This document shows positions 4,425 to 58,752 of a stretch of DNA of 64,000 nt, in pieces. Position 1 is the first letter of the stretch; each line of letters starts with the position of its first letter. The stretch lies in the sequence record PP434423.1; one strand, written 5' to 3'. A program made the translations under genes and the position numbers. Under the pieces are notes generated by a model that was not told where the DNA came from, ran no database searches, and saw only the letters and a list, made by a program, of their open reading frames with translations. Source of the stretch: Escherichia phage 236Ecol005PP.

Positions 4425-4688
4425 TTATTTCATATTATTGAAATATTCTTCTGCGATTTCGTCGTTATCATGGTAAACTTTAGAAGACAGTTTAACATAA
4501 CCTTCAGCAGTGAACATGTTAATCACAACTTTTACAGTATACCACTGACCGTCTTCATTACCCATTACTGCGTAAGTTTCAAACATCGGATGGTCAGGAC
4601 CGATAACTTTAATATCATTCACTGTACGACCGAAATCTTCTGAAACGCATTTCATAAAGAAGTTGAACAGTTCGCCGTAATTATCCAT
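4425..4688 (-). CDS. hypothetical protein, 87 aa
   Basis: ATG at 4688 with GGAG RBS (track start 4700 is TTG). Confidence 0.6.
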   Translation of the reverse strand: MDNYGELFNFFMKCVSEDFGRTVNDIKVIGPDHPMFETYAVMGNEDGQWYTVKVVINMFTAEGYVKLSSKVYHDNDEIAEEYFNNMK

Positions 4689-4731
4689 TTCATTCTCCAA
4701 GTTGTTTTCTGTATCAGTAGTTGATATTGAT

Positions 4732-4761
4732 ATAGTACCATGGAAGAACAGGGATGTAAAC
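4732..4761 (-). promoter_or_regulatory. T4-type early promoter (-35 GTTTAC, -10 TACTAT)
   Basis: GGTTTACA-N17-TACTAT on minus strand upstream of ORF 4425-4688. Confidence 0.45.
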
Positions 4762-4894
4762 CATTTTGTGAAAAAATTTTTTTAAAAGTTTTAGGGAATT
4801 CTAGGGCAGGGAGGGGCAATTAAAGGATAGGATAATATATTATAAAGGGTAGAAACTAAATGATGCCTAGAGAGGTCCAAAAAGGCCTAGATAC

Positions 4895-4923
4895 TAAAAA
4901 GCCCCAACCTTTCGGCTGGGGCT
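4895..4923 (-). terminator. rho-independent terminator closing the tRNA/stable-RNA transcription unit
   Basis: minus strand AGCCCCAGCCGAAAGGUUGGGGCU followed by UUUUU. Confidence 0.6.
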
Positions 4924-4971
4924 AAGCCTTGCGGCAACCTTGTCGGGGTTCCACCTGCTAAGGCAAGTGTT

Positions 4972-5066
4972 TGTACGAAACGCCGGGATTTGAACCCGGT
5001 TATTGAGCAGTTGACGCTACTCAATATTTTTAAAAGGCCATATCTCGACCATATCCGAACGTTCCG
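4972..5066 (-). ncRNA. tRNA-like stable RNA (candidate equivalent of T4 RNA species 1/2)
   Basis: canonical T-arm CCGGG-TTCAAAT-CCCGG and 7-bp acceptor-like stem, but no standard anticodon arm. Confidence 0.3.
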
Positions 5067-5210
5067 TCAAAAACGCTACTCGGCTTACGGCAAAGATATT
5101 TCCTCGAATCGATAATTCGGTGCGCCGTTTCTGCTGTGATGTAAGAGGGCATCAATAAACGCAAAGATTATTAACGCAATTCCTTACTCAGGGAACATCA
5201 GTCCGACGAC

Positions 5211-5765
5211 TTACCGGTAGCGACCCGGTTTCTCATTTGGTATTTCAAATTGTGTAGATTTAGTATCTAATTTTTTAACTATGGAACTTATGTCATGAAA
5301 GAAAAACCATTCGCCATTTATATGGTCCTGATTATAAATGCTGTGCATATATTTTTCAAGTTCTACTGCATCCTGGGAATATCTAAATGATACTATTTTA
5401 AAACTTTTAAACGGTGAAAATGTATTTGCTGTTATAACTCTAACATCAGGTTCTATACTTCTTCCTATTTTATAATAATTAGGATTTGTAGTATCTACCA
5501 TTATGTATACGAAAGCCTGTCGATAGCTTTTTTCTATATCAAATTCATCTTTAAATTTCAAAAGATTTAGGGCGGCAGTCCTACAAAATACTTTCCATTT
5601 TGACAAGCGTTTGGCTTCAGTCATAGAAAAGAATTTTTTCTTATCTGTTATTTTAAGAAAAGCAACATTTTCAATTAGTTCTTGTGTTATTTCAAAATTA
5701 CCGCGGTATATTAATCCAGCTTTTATAGCCAAATTAATTTGGTCCCAGTCTACATCACTTCTCAT
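5211..5765 (-). CDS. T5orf172 / GIY-YIG-like domain protein, 184 aa (possible seg-type mobile endonuclease)
   Basis: C-terminal AFVYIMVD...NYYKIGRS...GEWFFF resembles the T5orf172 GIY-YIG-like fold; ATG start. Confidence 0.7.
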   Translation of the reverse strand: MRSDVDWDQINLAIKAGLIYRGNFEITQELIENVAFLKITDKKKFFSMTEAKRLSKWKVFCRTAALNLLKFKDEFDIEKSYRQAFVYIMVDTTNPNYYKIGRSIEPDVRVITANTFSPFKSFKIVSFRYSQDAVELEKYMHSIYNQDHINGEWFFFHDISSIVKKLDTKSTQFEIPNEKPGRYR

Positions 5766-5786
5766 AATATTATTCTCTCAATAATT

Positions 5787-5863
5787 TGGCCAGGGTGAAA
5801 GGATTCTAACCTTTAACCTGCGGTTTAGAGGACCGCTACTCTATACAATTGAGTTACACCCCG
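5787..5863 (-). tRNA. tRNA-Arg (anticodon UCU)
   Basis: hand-folded cloverleaf; anticodon loop CCTCTAA; T-loop TTAGAAT; encoded CCA. Confidence 0.55.
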
Positions 5864-5989
5864 TAATTAGTTCACAGCAATACCTACTCCAACAATCAAG
5901 ATGTCTTCACACGAAATTAAGAGAAGAGTGATCAGTTCAACCACTATAATCGCGTCAAGTAGATATTAATGTGACAACTGTCACAAGTT

Positions 5990-6064
5990 TGGCGGACATG
6001 CATGGATTCGAACCATGGACCAATTGATTAACAGTCAACTGCTCTACCACTGAGCTACACATCC
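5990..6064 (-). tRNA. tRNA-Asn (anticodon GUU)
   Basis: hand-folded: GGATGTG acceptor, GCTC/GAGC D-stem, loop CTGTTAA, T-loop TTCGAAT, encoded CCA. Confidence 0.7.
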
Positions 6065-6068
6065 AAAT

Positions 6069-6155
6069 TGGTGGGGAGTGATGGAGTCGAACCACCCGAG
6101 TCGCAATGACAATGGATTTACAGTCCACACCGCTACCTCTACGGGATAACTCCCC
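6069..6155 (-). tRNA. tRNA-Tyr (anticodon GUA), long variable arm
   Basis: anticodon arm GTGGA-CTGTAAA-TCCAT as in bacterial tRNA-Tyr; type II variable arm; encoded CCA. Confidence 0.7.
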
Positions 6156-6168
6156 TAATTCGTAATTT

Positions 6169-6243
6169 GGTGGCCCTGGGTGGAATTGAACCACCATCTG
6201 GCGATTATGAGTCGCTTGCTTGAACCTTCCAGCTACAGGGCCT
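6169..6243 (-). tRNA. tRNA with CAU anticodon (Ile-lysidine type as in T4, or Met)
   Basis: anticodon loop CTCATAA; T-arm GGTGG-TTCAATT-CCACC; encoded CCA. Confidence 0.7.
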
Positions 6244-6244
6244 T

Positions 6245-6319
6245 GGTGCTGATTGACGGAATCGAACCGCCGACCTTCTCATTACAAGTGAGTTGCTCTA
6301 CCTACTGAGCTAAATCAGC
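6245..6319 (-). tRNA. tRNA-Thr (anticodon UGU)
   Basis: GCTGATT acceptor, loop CTTGTAA, T-loop TTCGATT, encoded CCA. Confidence 0.8.
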
Positions 6320-6325
6320 AAAAAC

Positions 6326-6415
6326 TGGCGGAGGCGATAGGATTTGAACCTATGAGTCGCCGGAGCGACTGCCGGTTTTCAAGACCGGTGCATTAAACCA
6401 CTCTGCCACGCCTCC
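6326..6415 (-). tRNA. tRNA-Ser (anticodon UGA), long variable arm
   Basis: anticodon arm CCGGT-CTTGAAA-ACCGG; type II variable arm; encoded CCA. Confidence 0.8.
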
Positions 6416-6417
6416 AG

Positions 6418-6491
6418 TCTCCGCGGCAGGATTTGAACCTGCGACATTCTGCTCCCAAAGCAGACGCTCTACCAAACTGAGCTACACGGAG
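6418..6491 (-). tRNA. tRNA-Pro (anticodon UGG), CCA not encoded
   Basis: anticodon loop TTTGGGA; T-arm GCAGG-TTCAAAT-CCTGC; 3-prime end lacks CCA. Confidence 0.75.
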
Positions 6492-6501
6492 TAAATTAAA
6501 T

Positions 6502-6575
<74 letters not shown>

Positions 6576-6581
6576 AAACTT

Positions 6582-6668
6582 TGGTACGAGAAGTGGGACT
6601 CGAACCCACAAGGAAATCATTCCGCAGCATTTTAAGTGCTGTGCCTTTACCAATTTGACCATTCTCGC
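6582..6668 (-). tRNA. tRNA-Leu (anticodon UAA), long variable arm
   Basis: anticodon arm CAGCA-CTTAAAA-TGCTG; T-arm GTGGG-TTCGAGT-CCCAC; encoded CCA. Confidence 0.8.
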
Positions 6669-6669
6669 G

Positions 6670-6742
6670 CTGGGAATAAAGGACTCGAACCTTTGCATCT
6701 AGCAGTCAAAGTGCTATGCCTTATCAACTTGGCTAATTCCCA
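6670..6742 (-). tRNA. tRNA-Gln (anticodon UUG), CCA not encoded
   Basis: anticodon arm TAGCA-CTTTGAC-TGCTA; T-arm AAAGG-TTCGAGT-CCTTT. Confidence 0.75.
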
Positions 6743-6811
6743 ATTATTAACAAAGGCTCTCAAGCAAGAACCCTTGATGATAGAGGGTATTAATCAGTGC
6801 GATATGAGTTA

Positions 6812-6835
6812 ATAATAACAAATAATTCTTAAAGC
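6812..6835 (-). promoter_or_regulatory. middle-type promoter (MotA box TGCTTTA, -10 TATTAT) upstream of tRNA cluster
   Basis: minus strand TGCTTTA-N12-TATTAT. Confidence 0.45.
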
Positions 6836-6839
6836 ATAT

Positions 6840-7127
6840 TTACCATTTATGATAATACATGTTTACGATGCATTCAAGACCCAAAGGATTCTTGAAAATA
6901 TCATATTCAAGAGGACCTTTTTCTGTTTCAATAAAGAAATCAAAATTTACTGTATTAAATTTACGGTCTTCCTTCACTAATTTAACTTGAGAAGATGAAC
7001 GGTCAATGTAAACCTTTTCAACTTCAAAACATGTTAAAATGCCATAATCGTCAATCAAGGCTTTAGCCGCGTCTTGATCATATTTATATCCATTTTCAAT
7101 GGATGATACTTTCGCATAAAGAATCAT
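6840..7127 (-). CDS. hypothetical protein, 95 aa
   Basis: ATG start; compact ORF between tRNA cluster and ip locus. Confidence 0.6.
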   Translation of the reverse strand: MILYAKVSSIENGYKYDQDAAKALIDDYGILTCFEVEKVYIDRSSSQVKLVKEDRKFNTVNFDFFIETEKGPLEYDIFKNPLGLECIVNMYYHKW

Positions 7128-7129
7128 TA

Positions 7130-7510
7130 TCAGCCTTCATCAACAATAGTATGCGTATTGGCATTTACGATTTGCCACCAATCAAAGCGATTAGAACCAT
7201 AATCTGGTTTGTTTTCATTTTCTTTGATAATGTCACGAAGTTCATCTTCAGTAGCGGCTTTCGCGATTAAATCAGCATATCCACCACGAGGATAATAATT
7301 ATCACCTGCAAAAAGTAAAAAGTTTGGTTTAATGTCATTGAACTCTTCAAGAGTAATAACTTTTCCTGACGGTTGAACAATCTCTACATATTTATACCCC
7401 AATTTTTGAGCAGCATCTACTGCTTCAAGCAAAGTATCATGAGCCCATCCAATTTGACAACCTGGCTTTTCAGATGGATTAGCCTGATAATCCGCATACA
7501 CTTTGTACAT
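7130..7510 (-). CDS. hypothetical protein, 126 aa
   Basis: ATG at 7510 with AAGGTGA RBS (track start 7519 is GTG). Confidence 0.6.
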   Translation of the reverse strand: MYKVYADYQANPSEKPGCQIGWAHDTLLEAVDAAQKLGYKYVEIVQPSGKVITLEEFNDIKPNFLLFAGDNYYPRGGYADLIAKAATEDELRDIIKENENKPDYGSNRFDWWQIVNANTHTIVDEG

Positions 7511-7511
7511 T

Positions 7512-7697
7512 CTATTCACCTTTAGAAATTTTATCCATAACGATAGCGATTAAACCAATTAAAAATGCTACTACAAGTGAAAACACATTTTCTGCTGTAG
7601 TTAATAATCCGCATATAAATCCAACAAACATTGAAAAACTAAAAGCGGAAGCAGAAATTGCAATAGCAACATTTCGAATTAATTCACAACGTTTCAT
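7512..7697 (-). CDS. small hydrophobic (membrane) protein, 61 aa
   Basis: ATG start; two predicted transmembrane stretches. Confidence 0.5.
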   Translation of the reverse strand: MKRCELIRNVAIAISASAFSFSMFVGFICGLLTTAENVFSLVVAFLIGLIAIVMDKISKGE

Positions 7698-7725
7698 TTT
7701 ATTCTCCTCTGTAGTTGATAGGGTA

Positions 7726-7755
7726 ATAGTATCACTACCCTATCTAAAAGTAAAC
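7726..7755 (-). promoter_or_regulatory. T4-type early promoter (-35 GTTTAC, -10 TACTAT) inside inverted repeat GATAGGG/CCCTATC
   Basis: GTTTAC-N18-TACTAT; 7-bp inverted repeat arms bracket the -10. Confidence 0.5.
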
Positions 7756-7767
7756 TGTTTTTATAAA

Positions 7768-8076
7768 CTATTTTATTCCGCGTGATGCAATTGTATTCTG
7801 TCGTTTAGCACCAGTTTGTTTAAAGTCATGATTGTCGATTTGATCGGTACGAGCAACTCCGAATGATGATTTAATCTTAGCTTTAGATCCTTTAGTTATA
7901 GAAATAAACATCTCGGAAGCCCCTTTCTTAAAGTCCGAAGCAATTACTTCAACACCGTTCTTAGCAAGTGACTTCAGAATTGCCTCCGCGTATTCATCGT
8001 CAAGACTCGCCTGAGTATTAATAACGAATGTCTTTGGCGCAGCCGCTTCATTGATAAATTCTTTAAATGTTTTCAT
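7768..8076 (-). CDS. internal head protein (ip family), 102 aa
   Basis: N-terminus MKTFKEFINEA = CTS; ATG start. Confidence 0.7.
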   Translation of the reverse strand: MKTFKEFINEAAAPKTFVINTQASLDDEYAEAILKSLAKNGVEVIASDFKKGASEMFISITKGSKAKIKSSFGVARTDQIDNHDFKQTGAKRQNTIASRGIK

Positions 8077-8106
8077 TTTATTTTCCTAATTAATTTTGAT
8101 GAGATA

Positions 8107-8136
8107 ATAGTATCACTACCCTATCTAAAAGTAAAC
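8107..8136 (-). promoter_or_regulatory. T4-type early promoter (near-copy of the 7726-7755 element)
   Basis: atagtatcactaccctatctaaaagtaaac repeated; GTTTAC-N18-TACTAT on minus. Confidence 0.5.
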
Positions 8137-8409
8137 TCATTTTAAATAAATTGCGTATTTTTTATAGCCACCAGGCTCGTGTCGAAGACCCCTATCATTA
8201 GCAAAACGCTCAATGTTGTTAATTTGATTCTGGTCAAGTTCAGAGATGTCAAACACGAAATAGTTACGTTTGTTACCAACTGTTACATAGTCAGTTAAAT
8301 CAATACCATATAGGTAATTGATGTCAGCAATCATAGTCTTGACAGCTTTGCTAATTTTTACTTTTTCGTTAAAAGTAGCTTCATTGATAAATTCTTTAAA
8401 TGTTTTCAT
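8137..8409 (-). CDS. internal head protein (ip family), 90 aa
   Basis: N-terminus MKTFKEFINEA = CTS; ATG start. Confidence 0.7.
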   Translation of the reverse strand: MKTFKEFINEATFNEKVKISKAVKTMIADINYLYGIDLTDYVTVGNKRNYFVFDISELDQNQINNIERFANDRGLRHEPGGYKKYAIYLK

Positions 8410-8442
8410 TTTATCCTATCACTCATTTGTTTTGATATGGTA

Positions 8443-8472
8443 ATAGTATCACAACTAAAACCCTGTGTAAAT
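8443..8472 (-). promoter_or_regulatory. T4-type early promoter (-35 TTTACA, -10 TACTAT)
   Basis: third copy of the ggtaatagtatcac motif upstream of an ip gene. Confidence 0.45.
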
Positions 8473-8484
8473 AACTTTGTGAAA

Positions 8485-9181
<697 letters not shown>

Positions 9182-55960: not shown

Positions 55961-55964
55961 CAAT

Positions 55965-55993
55965 GGGGACCTTTCGGTCCCCATATTTTTATT
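55965..55993 (+). terminator. rho-independent terminator after gene 54
   Basis: GGGGACCTTTCGGTCCCC followed by ATATTTTTATTT. Confidence 0.7.
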
Positions 55994-56279
55994 TACGGAA
56001 TGAAATAAAAGCAGCAACTGAAGCAACTAAACTGTCTTCAATATAAACTTCAATTTTTACCGGAGCTTCTGACTCAAATTTACCTGTTACTACACCTTGG
56101 AAAATACTTTCAGTCTGTTCTGGCTTTGAAAAATTTTCAGAAGGAAAAATTCCGAACTTTTTATCTGTTCCAAAAATTTTGATAAATTCATCATAAACTG
56201 CTTCATTAAAAGCATTATCAGCAGGAATAACGCCTTCAACTACAAGTTCTTGACCTAAAAAGCGCAAAGAAGATTTCAT
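55989..56279 (-). CDS. hypothetical protein (alt.-3 position), 96 aa
   Basis: ATG start; SD GAGG 8 nt upstream. Confidence 0.6.
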   Translation of the reverse strand: MKSSLRFLGQELVVEGVIPADNAFNEAVYDEFIKIFGTDKKFGIFPSENFSKPEQTESIFQGVVTGKFESEAPVKIEVYIEDSLVASVAAFISFRK

Positions 56280-56287
56280 TTTGTGTT

Positions 56288-56330
56288 CCTCATGTTATGT
56301 CAGTAAGATTACTATAACACAACATGAGGG
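56288..56330 (-). promoter_or_regulatory. inverted repeat CCTCATGTT/AACATGAGG able to sequester the alt.-3 RBS
   Basis: 9-bp perfect inverted repeat; downstream arm includes SD GAGG. Confidence 0.45.
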
Positions 56331-56340
56331 ACTTGTAAAC
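56311..56340 (-). promoter_or_regulatory. T4-type early promoter (-35 GTTTAC, -10 TATAGT) embedded in the hairpin
   Basis: GTTTAC-N18-TATAGT on minus strand. Confidence 0.45.
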
Positions 56341-56515
56341 TACATTTTGAACTTTTTAGTACGCGTAATAGGCATGCGTCGATTTTATACTGTTTCATTG
56401 TTTGAAGAGCAGTATCAAAAACAGCATTAATGACACCAATTGGATTTCCGCCCAAGTTTTTAAGCTTAACTAATGATAGTTTCTCATTAACACCTATCAT
56501 TACGATATGCATCAT
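56312..56515 (-). CDS. alt N-terminal paralogue fragment, downstream part (similar to Alt residues ~64-125)
   Basis: MMHIV...KLKNLGGNPIGVINAVFDTALQTMKQYKIDACLLRVLKS aligns with Alt MMHIV...KLKGLGPSPINYINSVFTVAMQTMRQYKIDACMLRILKS. Confidence 0.6.
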   Translation of the reverse strand: MMHIVMIGVNEKLSLVKLKNLGGNPIGVINAVFDTALQTMKQYKIDACLLRVLKSSKCSLQVPHVVL

Positions 56516-56697
56516 TTTATCGCCCGGCTTAACGTTTTATTCGTATCACCGCCAGAGGTGTATGTACAAAATCTAAATCCAGGAAGCACACTTTCTTCAC
56601 CGGCTTGAATAGCAAAAATTTGAGGTATTTTATGCTTAGGATTTAAGTTAACAACCGGCGCCGAAGCGCCGTCAAATAATTCTGTAATAAGTTCCAT
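56512..56697 (-). CDS. alt N-terminal paralogue fragment, upstream part (similar to Alt residues 1-60)
   Basis: MELITELFD...KIPQIF...PGFRFCTYTSGGDTN aligns with Alt N-terminus; frameshifted relative to the next ORF. Confidence 0.6.
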   Translation of the reverse strand: MELITELFDGASAPVVNLNPKHKIPQIFAIQAGEESVLPGFRFCTYTSGGDTNKTLSRAIK

Positions 56698-56700
56698 GAT

Positions 56701-58752
56701 TTATCCTTGAACGAACTTGTAAGGCATGTTTGCAATATCTATGCAAGACGCAATAATTCCAAGAGATGATTCTGCTTTCTGTTTAACATTTGATGAAACA
56801 AACGATGCAAAGTCAACTCTATCTTCTATATCACCTGTCATTGTAACCAATTCACCAGTTTCCATTAAACGGTCACCGTCATAAATTACCGATTCGGTGA
56901 GTTCTTCTGTGGTCATAACTTCAGCTTGAATAAGCTTGTTGTTAGTTCTAACTGTTCCATCGTTGTAAGATGCATCAGTTATTTTATTAACTTTGACCAT
57001 TAATCCACGTGGCAAAATGACTTCCATTTCATTTGAAGGCGCTAAACTTCCACCGGGTAAAACAACATTGACTTTATCAGCCCCAGTAATAACCCATCCA
57101 ATTCCAACTAAATTATCGCTAGAATTTACAAGTCCTTCATCAGTTTTATCAATAGAAACACTTAAACGCTTTTCGTCTGGTAAAACACCCACAGATGAAT
57201 CAGTCATCCAAGTACCAAAAATATTTGGATATAATGATGTTGACACAAAGTTTCTAAAATAAAAAACTCGATTTTTTACCATTGCTTCGTATATTGAAGG
57301 TAACATTCGTTGTGAACGATACAAAGTAATACCTTTTGGTAATCGTTCACCATTTTTAAAGGCTGAATCTAAATTATCAATGGCTTGTTCTATTTCAGGT
57401 GCTGTTAAAATACTTGTACGCTCATCTGGATTATATAATCCCAAAAGAGCATTATTCATGTCTACATATCCTGAACCTACATATTCACGAATTCCGCGTT
57501 TTTGCGCTGGTGTGTATTTAGATGAATCTTTATTTTCGACTATAGGATGTAATGACCATCCAGCGGTAAGAGCATATCCACGTAATTCTCTTCGAATAAT
57601 CTTTGTTTTTATTGCATTCCAAGAATTTTGTACTAACTCATTTGCAGCATCTTGGTTTAAATGCGAATGTCTGTTAATATTTCTTTCAAACCAAGCACCT
57701 TTATATTTTTCTAAAGTATCATCGACGATAGAAGCAATAGTTTCTAAAGTTTTTATTGAAGTAATAGATTCTTTTCGTAATTTTTCTAAAGCTTTATTTT
57801 TTATTTCTGCATTAATAATGGATTCTTTATCTTCAGGAATTATAGAAGCTTCTCTGAATGCCATCCCAGCTGTAACACTGCTAAGAGCATTCTCTAATGC
57901 AAATCCTGAAGTAGAAATAACAGTTAATTCGTTAGCATCAGAAATTAAAGGCGCGTCGGCGGGTTTATTTAATTCTGCTGCTGAAGCCTCAAATTTTTGA
58001 AACATTGGTGTTTCAAATCTAGAAGATTCCAATGACTGACTTTGTGCAATTGCTCTACGGGAAATTTTAACTTTAACAATAACAGCTTGGTCAGAACGTT
58101 TATCATTTTCTTGCGCAATAGATGCAGCAATTGCCTCATTTTTAGTTACTTGAGCTCCAGTATCTTTATTGATATAAACATCACCGACCTTCGATTCAAC
58201 TTTAGTAAAGAGCTCGGTGCTAATTTCCGGAACTCCTGGAATGTCTTCTAGTGATACATTTTTGCGATGTATAAGAATATATGCATACTTTTTATCGTAA
58301 TCCCAGAGTTCCTTAAGAAGGACGTATCTGCCACCTGAACGACTGCGGATAAGTCTATCAGCAATAACTTGAATTTGTCGAGCTTGACCAGCAGTTTTAG
58401 ACTTAAGAATACGAAGCATGCAGGCATCAATTTTATACTGACGCATCGTTTGCATCGCAACAGTAAAAACTGAATTGATGTAATTAATTGGGCTTGGACC
58501 GAGACCTTTTAATTTAGCAATTGAACCTTTAGCAGTTAATGTAAAAGGAACGATGTGCATCATTTTATCGCCCATCTTTAAATCACGGTTAGTATCACCT
58601 CCAGATGTATAAGTACATAAACGAAAGCCTGGTTGTTCTATTGCGTCATCAACATGAACTGAAAAAATTTGTGGTATTTTCTTCTTTGGATACAAATTTG
58701 TAATCGGAAGAGTAGTATTTTCGTCAAATAATTCTGTAATAAGTTCCATCAT
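56701..58752 (-). CDS. alt: Alt ADP-ribosyltransferase (virion-packaged)
   Basis: 683 aa; position between 54 and 30 and length as T4 Alt; two adjacent ATG starts. Confidence 0.85.
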   Translation of the reverse strand: MMELITELFDENTTLPITNLYPKKKIPQIFSVHVDDAIEQPGFRLCTYTSGGDTNRDLKMGDKMMHIVPFTLTAKGSIAKLKGLGPSPINYINSVFTVAMQTMRQYKIDACMLRILKSKTAGQARQIQVIADRLIRSRSGGRYVLLKELWDYDKKYAYILIHRKNVSLEDIPGVPEISTELFTKVESKVGDVYINKDTGAQVTKNEAIAASIAQENDKRSDQAVIVKVKISRRAIAQSQSLESSRFETPMFQKFEASAAELNKPADAPLISDANELTVISTSGFALENALSSVTAGMAFREASIIPEDKESIINAEIKNKALEKLRKESITSIKTLETIASIVDDTLEKYKGAWFERNINRHSHLNQDAANELVQNSWNAIKTKIIRRELRGYALTAGWSLHPIVENKDSSKYTPAQKRGIREYVGSGYVDMNNALLGLYNPDERTSILTAPEIEQAIDNLDSAFKNGERLPKGITLYRSQRMLPSIYEAMVKNRVFYFRNFVSTSLYPNIFGTWMTDSSVGVLPDEKRLSVSIDKTDEGLVNSSDNLVGIGWVITGADKVNVVLPGGSLAPSNEMEVILPRGLMVKVNKITDASYNDGTVRTNNKLIQAEVMTTEELTESVIYDGDRLMETGELVTMTGDIEDRVDFASFVSSNVKQKAESSLGIIASCIDIANMPYKFVQG

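Follow-up and report, generated by a model that had tools for sequence, protein, structure and literature searches.

The genes alt.-1 and alt.-2 of a T4-like Escherichia phage: probable relic of a second full-length alt paralogue

Results

Two small ORFs between alt and alt.-3

In the stretch of DNA that was analysed as a whole (64,000 nucleotides of Escherichia phage 236Ecol005PP, record PP434423.1; hereafter the window), the gene order around 56312-56697 is that of the T4-like phages (Tequatrovirus). The initial annotation had placed two back-to-back ORFs in this interval, and our analysis confirmed both, on the minus strand (Table 1). The alt ORF lies directly upstream of the first of them, across a gap of 3 nt, and the pair is flanked by alt and alt.-3 and placed upstream of gene 54, which is convergent, in agreement with the annotation of T4T and T4. 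In the T4 annotation, alt.-1 (186 nt) and alt.-2 (204 nt) both fall between alt and alt.-3, and we assign the 61-aa and 67-aa ORFs of the window to these two genes.

Table 1. Positions, strands and supporting evidence for the features of the locus (coordinates are those of the window)
Feature	Position	Strand	Evidence
Genes 29, 48, 54		plus	ORF map of the window
Series of 96-aa ORF, two small ORFs, 683-aa ORF, 62-aa ORF, DNA ligase		minus	ORF map and Pfam
alt.-3, 96 aa, DUF5498, phrog_1739	55989-56279	minus	PF17602, E 1.4e-64
Candidate early-type sigma-70 promoter for alt.-3: GTTTAC, 18 nt, TG-extended TATAGT	56311-56340	minus	Scan, 10 of 12 plus TG
alt.-2 ORF, 67 aa	56312-56515	minus	phrog_15247, positions 1-67 of 67, E 8e-49
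Deletion junction, single copy of the 9-bp repeat CTAAAAAGT	56351-56359	minus	Alignments to RB14 and T2
alt.-1 ORF, 61 aa	56512-56697	minus	phrog_23015, positions 1-61 of 61, E 1.7e-46
Frameshift site, A4 run (AATAAAACG)	56535-56538	minus	Alignments; intact copies have A5 (AATAAAAACG)
alt, 683 aa, ADP-ribosyltransferase	56701-58752	minus	PF03496, E 1.3e-33, residues 375-615; T4 annotation

The T4 genes alt.-1 and alt.-2 (UniProt P39495 and P39494) share with the window their place, their lengths (61 and 67 aa), the deletion junction and the A4 frameshift described below. They differ from the window by a few point changes: alt.-1 ends in NQAIK in T4 and in SRAIK in the window, for example, and the window remnant carries a private synonymous change at G83. 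A probe of 1.2 kb spanning alt.-1 and alt.-2 found matches in 530 phage records, among them Escherichia phage Pu-Krd-SF4 at 99.8% identity and T4 at 97.3%. Codon 17 of alt.-1 reads ACA in the T4 reference AF158101 and AAC in T4T and every other genome compared, a swap of adjacent bases that may represent an old sequencing error or a strain difference. In three records (PV287714, which is HMD-9, MN580668 and PQ615101) the fragments carry the automatic label 'ADP-ribosyltransferase' or 'NAD(+)--arginine ADP-ribosyltransferase', and alt.-3 is labelled 'tail length tape-measure protein'; these are misannotations, and they are able to propagate.

Homology to Alt

Alignment of the fragments to the adjacent Alt gave significant similarity for both. 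By BLASTP, the 61-aa ORF matches Alt residues 2-58 (35/57 identical, E 6e-23) and the 67-aa ORF matches residues 64-118 (34/55 identical, E 1e-21), an identity of 61-62%. All four motifs that had been singled out from the letters (ELITELFD, KIPQIF, CTYTSGGDTN and QTM(K/R)QYKIDAC) are present. The homology that the initial annotation extended over ~125 residues is real, although it covers about 116-118 of them, and against the Alt-like profile phrog_802 the two ORFs match only positions 2-59 and 64-120 of 674.

When Alt was searched by tblastn against the whole window, the only two extra matches were alt.-1 and alt.-2. Their homology, carried in two frames, overlaps at 56530-56536, and the split is therefore a real 1-nt frameshift. 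The catalytic region is missing as well, as had been proposed: a Pfam search with the 128-aa unsplit remnant of phage SYGD1 gave no match to PF03496, the family that Alt itself matches at 375-615, and the R, STS and ExE catalytic motifs fall in the deleted part of the second alt copy. Homology of alt.-1 to the N-terminal part of the second Alt takes in codons 1-54; the remaining 7 (TLSRAIK) are out of frame. Residues 1-55 of alt.-2 correspond to residues 62-116 of the second paralogue, and its final 12 residues (SKCSLQVPHVVL) come from out-of-frame reading that passes the old stop codon and enters the intergenic promoter.

T4 Alt (gpAlt), a packaged mono-ADP-ribosyltransferase, is homologous to the remnant over its N-terminal ~116 residues, MELITE included. 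Both the catalytic domain and the C-terminal propeptide (LTE-619) of T4 Alt are missing from the remnant, and there is no sign of a protein made from it. Pfam contains no family covering the N-terminal region of Alt, and the Protein Data Bank contains no sequence relative of Alt from which structure-based domain boundaries could be drawn.

An intact second alt copy in relatives

In RB14 and T2, a 2,058-nt gene encoding 685 aa lies between alt and alt.-3, at 6601-8658 in both of the segments compared. We refer to this gene as Alt2. Most Tequatroviruses carry it, Pinarejo, fPS-65, teqdroes, FL33, UFV13, REP4 and RB9 among them, and the frame of 685 codons is open in 10/10 intact copies (nine phages and one IMG/VR contig). 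Alt2 matches PF03496 (Pfam, E 9e-20), retains the Arg, S-T-S and E-x-E motifs, and gives a pN/pS of 0.05 between RB14 and T2. Because its frames are open, the domain and catalytic motifs are retained and pN/pS is low, Alt2 can be regarded as a functional, constrained and apparently active paralogue. Its labels in sequence records are inconsistent, being 'alt.-1', 'alt.-2', 'Alt-like RNA polymerase ADP-ribosyltransferase' or hypothetical, and no functional study of Alt2 was found in the literature searched.

Intact Alt2 (T2, RB14, RB9, fPS-65 and others) is the orthologue of the remnant and has the same start, the same ribosome-binding site and the same alt.-3 promoter downstream. The window remnant has lost codons 117 to about 682, and with them the PF03496 domain, and differs further by its 1-nt frameshift. 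The remnant is thus a paralogue of Alt and not a fragment copied from Alt; its divergence from Alt reflects the old separation of two paralogues rather than decay, since its DNA is 95-97% identical to the first ~350 nt and the 3′ flank of Alt2.

Alt and Alt2 are 41% identical overall. The first ~240 residues are the most similar (60-77%), residues ~240-420 the least (10-15%), and the catalytic part is intermediate (35-50%). Alt itself is a mosaic: when the window Alt is compared with the Alt of RB14 (4504-6597 in the segment compared) and T2, identity is 97-100% over the first ~240 residues, 24-46% over ~240-420 and 81-91% at the C-terminus. Residues ~240-420, which are also the least conserved between Alt and Alt2, may form a swappable, target-determining segment.

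A deletion between direct repeats and a single-nucleotide frameshift

Comparison with the intact gene located the junction exactly. On the minus strand, the window from 56760 to 56351 shows 97% DNA identity to RB14 (95% to T2), running from the end of alt through Alt2 codon 116, and from 56359 down to 56250 it shows 99% identity to RB14 (97% to T2), covering the last 20 nt of the Alt2 frame and its 3′ flank. These two alignments overlap by nine bases, CTAAAAAGT, which the intact Alt2 of RB14 and T2 carries once at codons 114-116 and once more, at a distance of 1,699 bp, 11 nt ahead of the stop. The overlap at the repeat therefore places in the window a deletion of 1,699 bp between 9-bp direct repeats, and a loss flanked by repeats is what slipped or microhomology-mediated deletion would be expected to leave. 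Since 1,699 is 3n+1, the reading frame is not kept and continues beyond the old stop codon, which gives alt.-2 its 12 non-homologous residues. Because the deletion ended 11 nt short of the Alt2 stop codon, the alt.-3 promoter was spared.

A 101-nt probe across the junction was compared with INPHARED and matched 377 records. It was found whole in 89/377 (about a quarter), and in most of the other 288 it splits into positions 1-55 and 47-101, the overlap being the nine repeat bases. Since the probe splits at the repeat in most records, the intact gene prevails and the deletion is derived and found in a minority. Scans of IMG/VR found the junction in 2 contigs and the intact site in 1 contig, numbers too small to serve as a survey. 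One of the readings offered by the initial annotation was a decaying partial duplication; a decaying, truncated and frameshifted alt paralogue is indeed what we find, but partial duplication as the mechanism is ruled out by the complete 685-aa second alt at the same locus in relatives.

The second lesion is the loss of a single base. Intact copies read AAT AAA AAC GTT AAG CCG GGC GAT AAA ATG ATG (N K N V K P G D K M M), with A5 in all of them (n=10). The window and T4 have one A fewer, the first frame then ends at a TGA, and the conserved Met-Met is left as the start of alt.-2, through an ATGA stop/start overlap with alt.-1.

Lesions and constraint among deletion-bearing genomes

We surveyed 18 deletion-bearing genomes, the window included, against the ten intact copies. 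A single genome, SYGD1, has no lesion beyond the deletion and keeps the remnant as one 128-aa ORF. The A4 frameshift is the only listed lesion in 9/18 (the window, T4, T4T, e11/2, HMD-9, LH2, SP1 and two IMG/VR contigs), LH2 additionally having ATG>GTG. A codon-6 change of GAA>TAA stands with an in-frame A5 run in fPS-2, AV119 and EC128 (3/18) and together with the A4 frameshift in pSe_SNUABM_01, ACG-C40 and SP21535 (3/18); both occur with a further 1-nt deletion, in a T run inside alt.-2, in 235Ecol030PP and IME537 (2/18). None of these remnant lesions (A4, codon-6 stop, second 1-nt deletion, ATG>GTG) was found in the ten intact copies. With respect to frame integrity, a check that the initial annotation had proposed, the relatives carry lesions that vary between lineages.

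The codon-6 stop (56680-56682 in window coordinates) and the A4 frameshift occur in all four combinations among the relatives, and the same junction lies downstream of both T4-type alt (2,049-2,055 nt) and T2-type alt (2,088-2,094 nt). Together, these two observations imply that there was recombination within about 150 bp or that mutation or deletion was recurrent. SP21535 also has a substitution adjoining the deletion junction.

Across 348 nt of homology, 13 non-synonymous or nonsense changes, 5 synonymous changes and 2 indels are private to remnants, compared with 2 non-synonymous changes, 28 synonymous changes and no indels among variants seen in intact copies (Fisher p = 3.5e-6, in a test that counts variant sites rather than phylogenetic events and in which the ten intact copies decide what is private to remnants). 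The ratio of 13:5 is near the neutral site ratio of ~3.5:1 (about 271 non-synonymous and 77 synonymous sites). A remnant and an intact copy compared pairwise give pN/pS values of 0.02-0.11; a reading of these low values as a sign of constraint was rejected, as they consist mostly of old synonymous polymorphism common to the intact alleles. The variants private to remnants are the informative ones: the stump evolves without protein-level constraint and is relaxed relative to the intact gene.

Expression signals and the alt.-3 promoter

The alt.-1 ATG is preceded, at 6 nt, by a Shine-Dalgarno sequence (AAGGA) that falls within the end of alt, and on inspection of the sequence no ribosome-binding site was recognisable upstream of alt.-2. 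An ATGA overlap, as found between the two ORFs, is typical of translational coupling. No terminator was seen in the 3-nt gap between alt and alt.-1.

Small proteins are easily missed by shotgun proteomics. In a T4 time course, alt.-1 and alt.-2 RNA fall into the 'middle' class, like alt, and their protein class is given as NA (PMC9697503). In the corresponding proteomics, P39495 (alt.-1), a small protein of the kind that can escape detection, is at zero intensity in each of the 24 columns, and P39494 (alt.-2) is absent from between its table neighbours, whose rows are listed; Alt and Alt.-3 are clearly quantified (PMC9697503). The T4 remnant is transcribed, and no protein from it is seen in the part of the published T4 proteomics table that was covered, in which products of this size are hard to detect.

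The best sigma-70-like site of the region is the candidate early-type promoter of alt.-3 (Table 1), which overlaps the tail and stop codon of alt.-2. The number of promoter-like sites in the region equals the expectation from shuffled sequence. At the homologous position T2 has a perfect TATAAT, and in the fPS-65 record a 'predicted early promoter' is annotated there. The downstream gene is conserved after both intact and deleted second alt copies, and in T4 it belongs to the early class in RNA and protein and is strongly expressed early (PMC9697503). We infer that the promoter is active in this phage. Mutations that extend the C-terminus of T4 alt.-3 to 110 or 117 aa allow escape from the defence system CmdTAC through blocked CmdA degradation (PMC11618068).

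Between the convergent gene 54 and alt.-3, a perfect hairpin with a 9-bp stem lies at 55963-55984 with T runs on both sides. It is a bidirectional terminator, and it is annotated as such in fPS-2, fPS-65, SP1 and e11/2. A terminator-like hairpin at 56361-56379 and plus-strand ORFs within the interval were judged to be due to chance.

Discussion

We propose that the region is the pseudogene relic of a second full-length alt paralogue, Alt2, an explanation that we hold with high confidence. An old tandem duplication gave rise to alt and Alt2. In the lineage of T4 and the window, 1,699 bp were then lost between the 9-bp repeats, removing Alt2 from codon 117 almost to its stop, including the catalytic domain. 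The later loss of one A from the A5 run divided what was left into ORFs of 61 and 67 aa, and the stump has since evolved without constraint at the protein level. Since alt and alt.-1 are only 3 nt apart with no terminator in between, the stump is probably carried on the alt transcript. With its original ribosome-binding site, alt.-1 may be translated at a low level, although neither peptide is likely to have a selected function; the alt.-3 promoter at the 3′ end is probably the only functional element inside the interval.

That the region is a pseudogene relic is already known from GenBank notes and the literature. The note in HM137666 (T4T) describes alt.-1 and alt.-2 as the result of a deletion and a further frame shift in the second alt copy, the note in AF158101 (reference T4) attributes them to an old duplication that covered the beginning of alt, and the fPS-2 record flags its own copy as a 'putative pseudogene'. 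Nolan et al. (2006) listed T4 alt.-1 and alt.-2 as paralogous duplications of alt (PMC1524935). What is added here is the exact junction and its repeat, the lesion in the A run, the catalogue of lesions, the evidence that constraint is relaxed, and the overlap of alt.-2 with the promoter of alt.-3.

The initial annotation had also raised the possibility that the ORFs encode a pair of small proteins retaining an N-terminal module of Alt, in which case they could act as capsid-targeted peptides or as competitors or modulators of the incorporation of Alt into the prohead core. There is reason to consider this, as alt.-1 keeps its start codon and Shine-Dalgarno sequence and begins with MELITE, identical to the ITE-6 site of Alt and ending in the (L/I)-x-E form of a gp21 cleavage motif. 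Mass spectrometry has shown that Alt is trimmed by six residues at its N-terminus (ITE-6) and by 63 at its C-terminus (LTE-619), and short N-terminal propeptides direct T4 internal proteins to the prohead (PMC5694885, PMC9026906) and so to the capsid (PMC5694885). The idea of the N-terminus as a packaging module accordingly holds for the first six residues, MELITE with its gp21 cleavage site, but not beyond them. The N-terminal block conserved between the paralogues reaches about residue 240, of which the remnant keeps only the first ~116, and in 8/18 relatives a stop falls exactly at codon 6; for these reasons function as a retained N-terminal module is unlikely, although it keeps a small probability for the T4-type allele. 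Both ORFs are open in 9/18 deletion-bearing genomes, their RNA is present in T4, and the ATGA overlap could couple translation of alt.-2 to that of alt.-1. The other disabling lesions, among them the extra frameshift inside alt.-2 in 2 genomes, the near-neutral balance of remnant-private changes, the lack of a recognisable ribosome-binding site ahead of alt.-2 and the absence of a protein signal in T4 proteomics all disfavour a retained function, and we consider the small-protein explanation very unlikely.

Recoding of the pair, by a programmed -1 frameshift or by slippage at the A run or at AAA-UGA, could in principle join the ORFs into an Alt-like protein of ~128 aa. The frames do differ by one base at a homopolymer, and at the end of alt.-1, which reads A-AAA-UGA, a P-site tRNA-Lys might re-pair one base back. 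The A4 run, however, offers no X-XXY-YYZ heptamer, and a TAA in the -1 frame overlaps it; nor is the shift conserved, as A5 is found in every intact copy and in SYGD1, fPS-2, AV119 and EC128, three of which four have the codon-6 stop. Recoding is highly improbable on these grounds. Some sequencing chemistries often get homopolymer lengths wrong, and a sequencing or assembly artefact in this record would be another way to obtain the frameshift or the deletion. A4 is present, however, in 14/18 deletion-bearing genomes (the window and 13 records from different laboratories and technologies), and the junction is present in 89 INPHARED records. The artefact reading, to which we assign a negligible probability, is effectively refuted by these independent records.

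A different question is whether the loss of Alt2 was itself adaptive, Alt2 being a disadvantage on certain hosts and the 9-bp repeat a recurrent route to its removal; the stump would still be non-functional. The junction lies downstream of both types of alt and on different remnant haplotypes (fPS-2, AV119 and EC128 share the L76, K80R and G88 variants with the intact copy of T2), and about a quarter of the matching INPHARED records carry it. Frequent recombination among T-even phages can nevertheless spread one deletion onto many backgrounds, laboratory derivatives of T4 inflate the junction count, and intact Alt2 is under strong purifying selection where it is present. We regard adaptive loss as unlikely. 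Two more far-reaching ideas also have a low probability: that an Alt.-1 peptide is translated from the alt mRNA and enters, or competes for, the prohead core, or that repeated loss of Alt2 via the 9-bp repeat is adaptive where Alt2 is a liability.

Truncated or duplicated alt paralogues exist in other T4-like genera. RB49ORF183c, 44RRORF188c and 44RRORF187c have been grouped with T4 alt.-1 and alt.-2 as alt-adjacent paralogous duplications (PMC1524935); on this published description they resemble the remnant in being paralogues next to alt, but they belong to other genera. The occurrence of such paralogues across genera points to repeated gain and loss of alt copies.

The importance of these results beyond correct annotation is small. 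alt.-1 and alt.-2 should be annotated as one pseudogene and not as two hypothetical proteins, and automatic 'ADP-ribosyltransferase' labels on the fragments are misleading. The mechanism of the deletion is now exact, with 1,699 bp lost at a 9-bp direct repeat. The tail of alt.-2 is really the candidate early promoter of alt.-3, a gene now linked to escape from CmdTAC. Alt2, which is present in most T-even phages and missing from laboratory T4, is a worthier object of study than the stump that it left behind.
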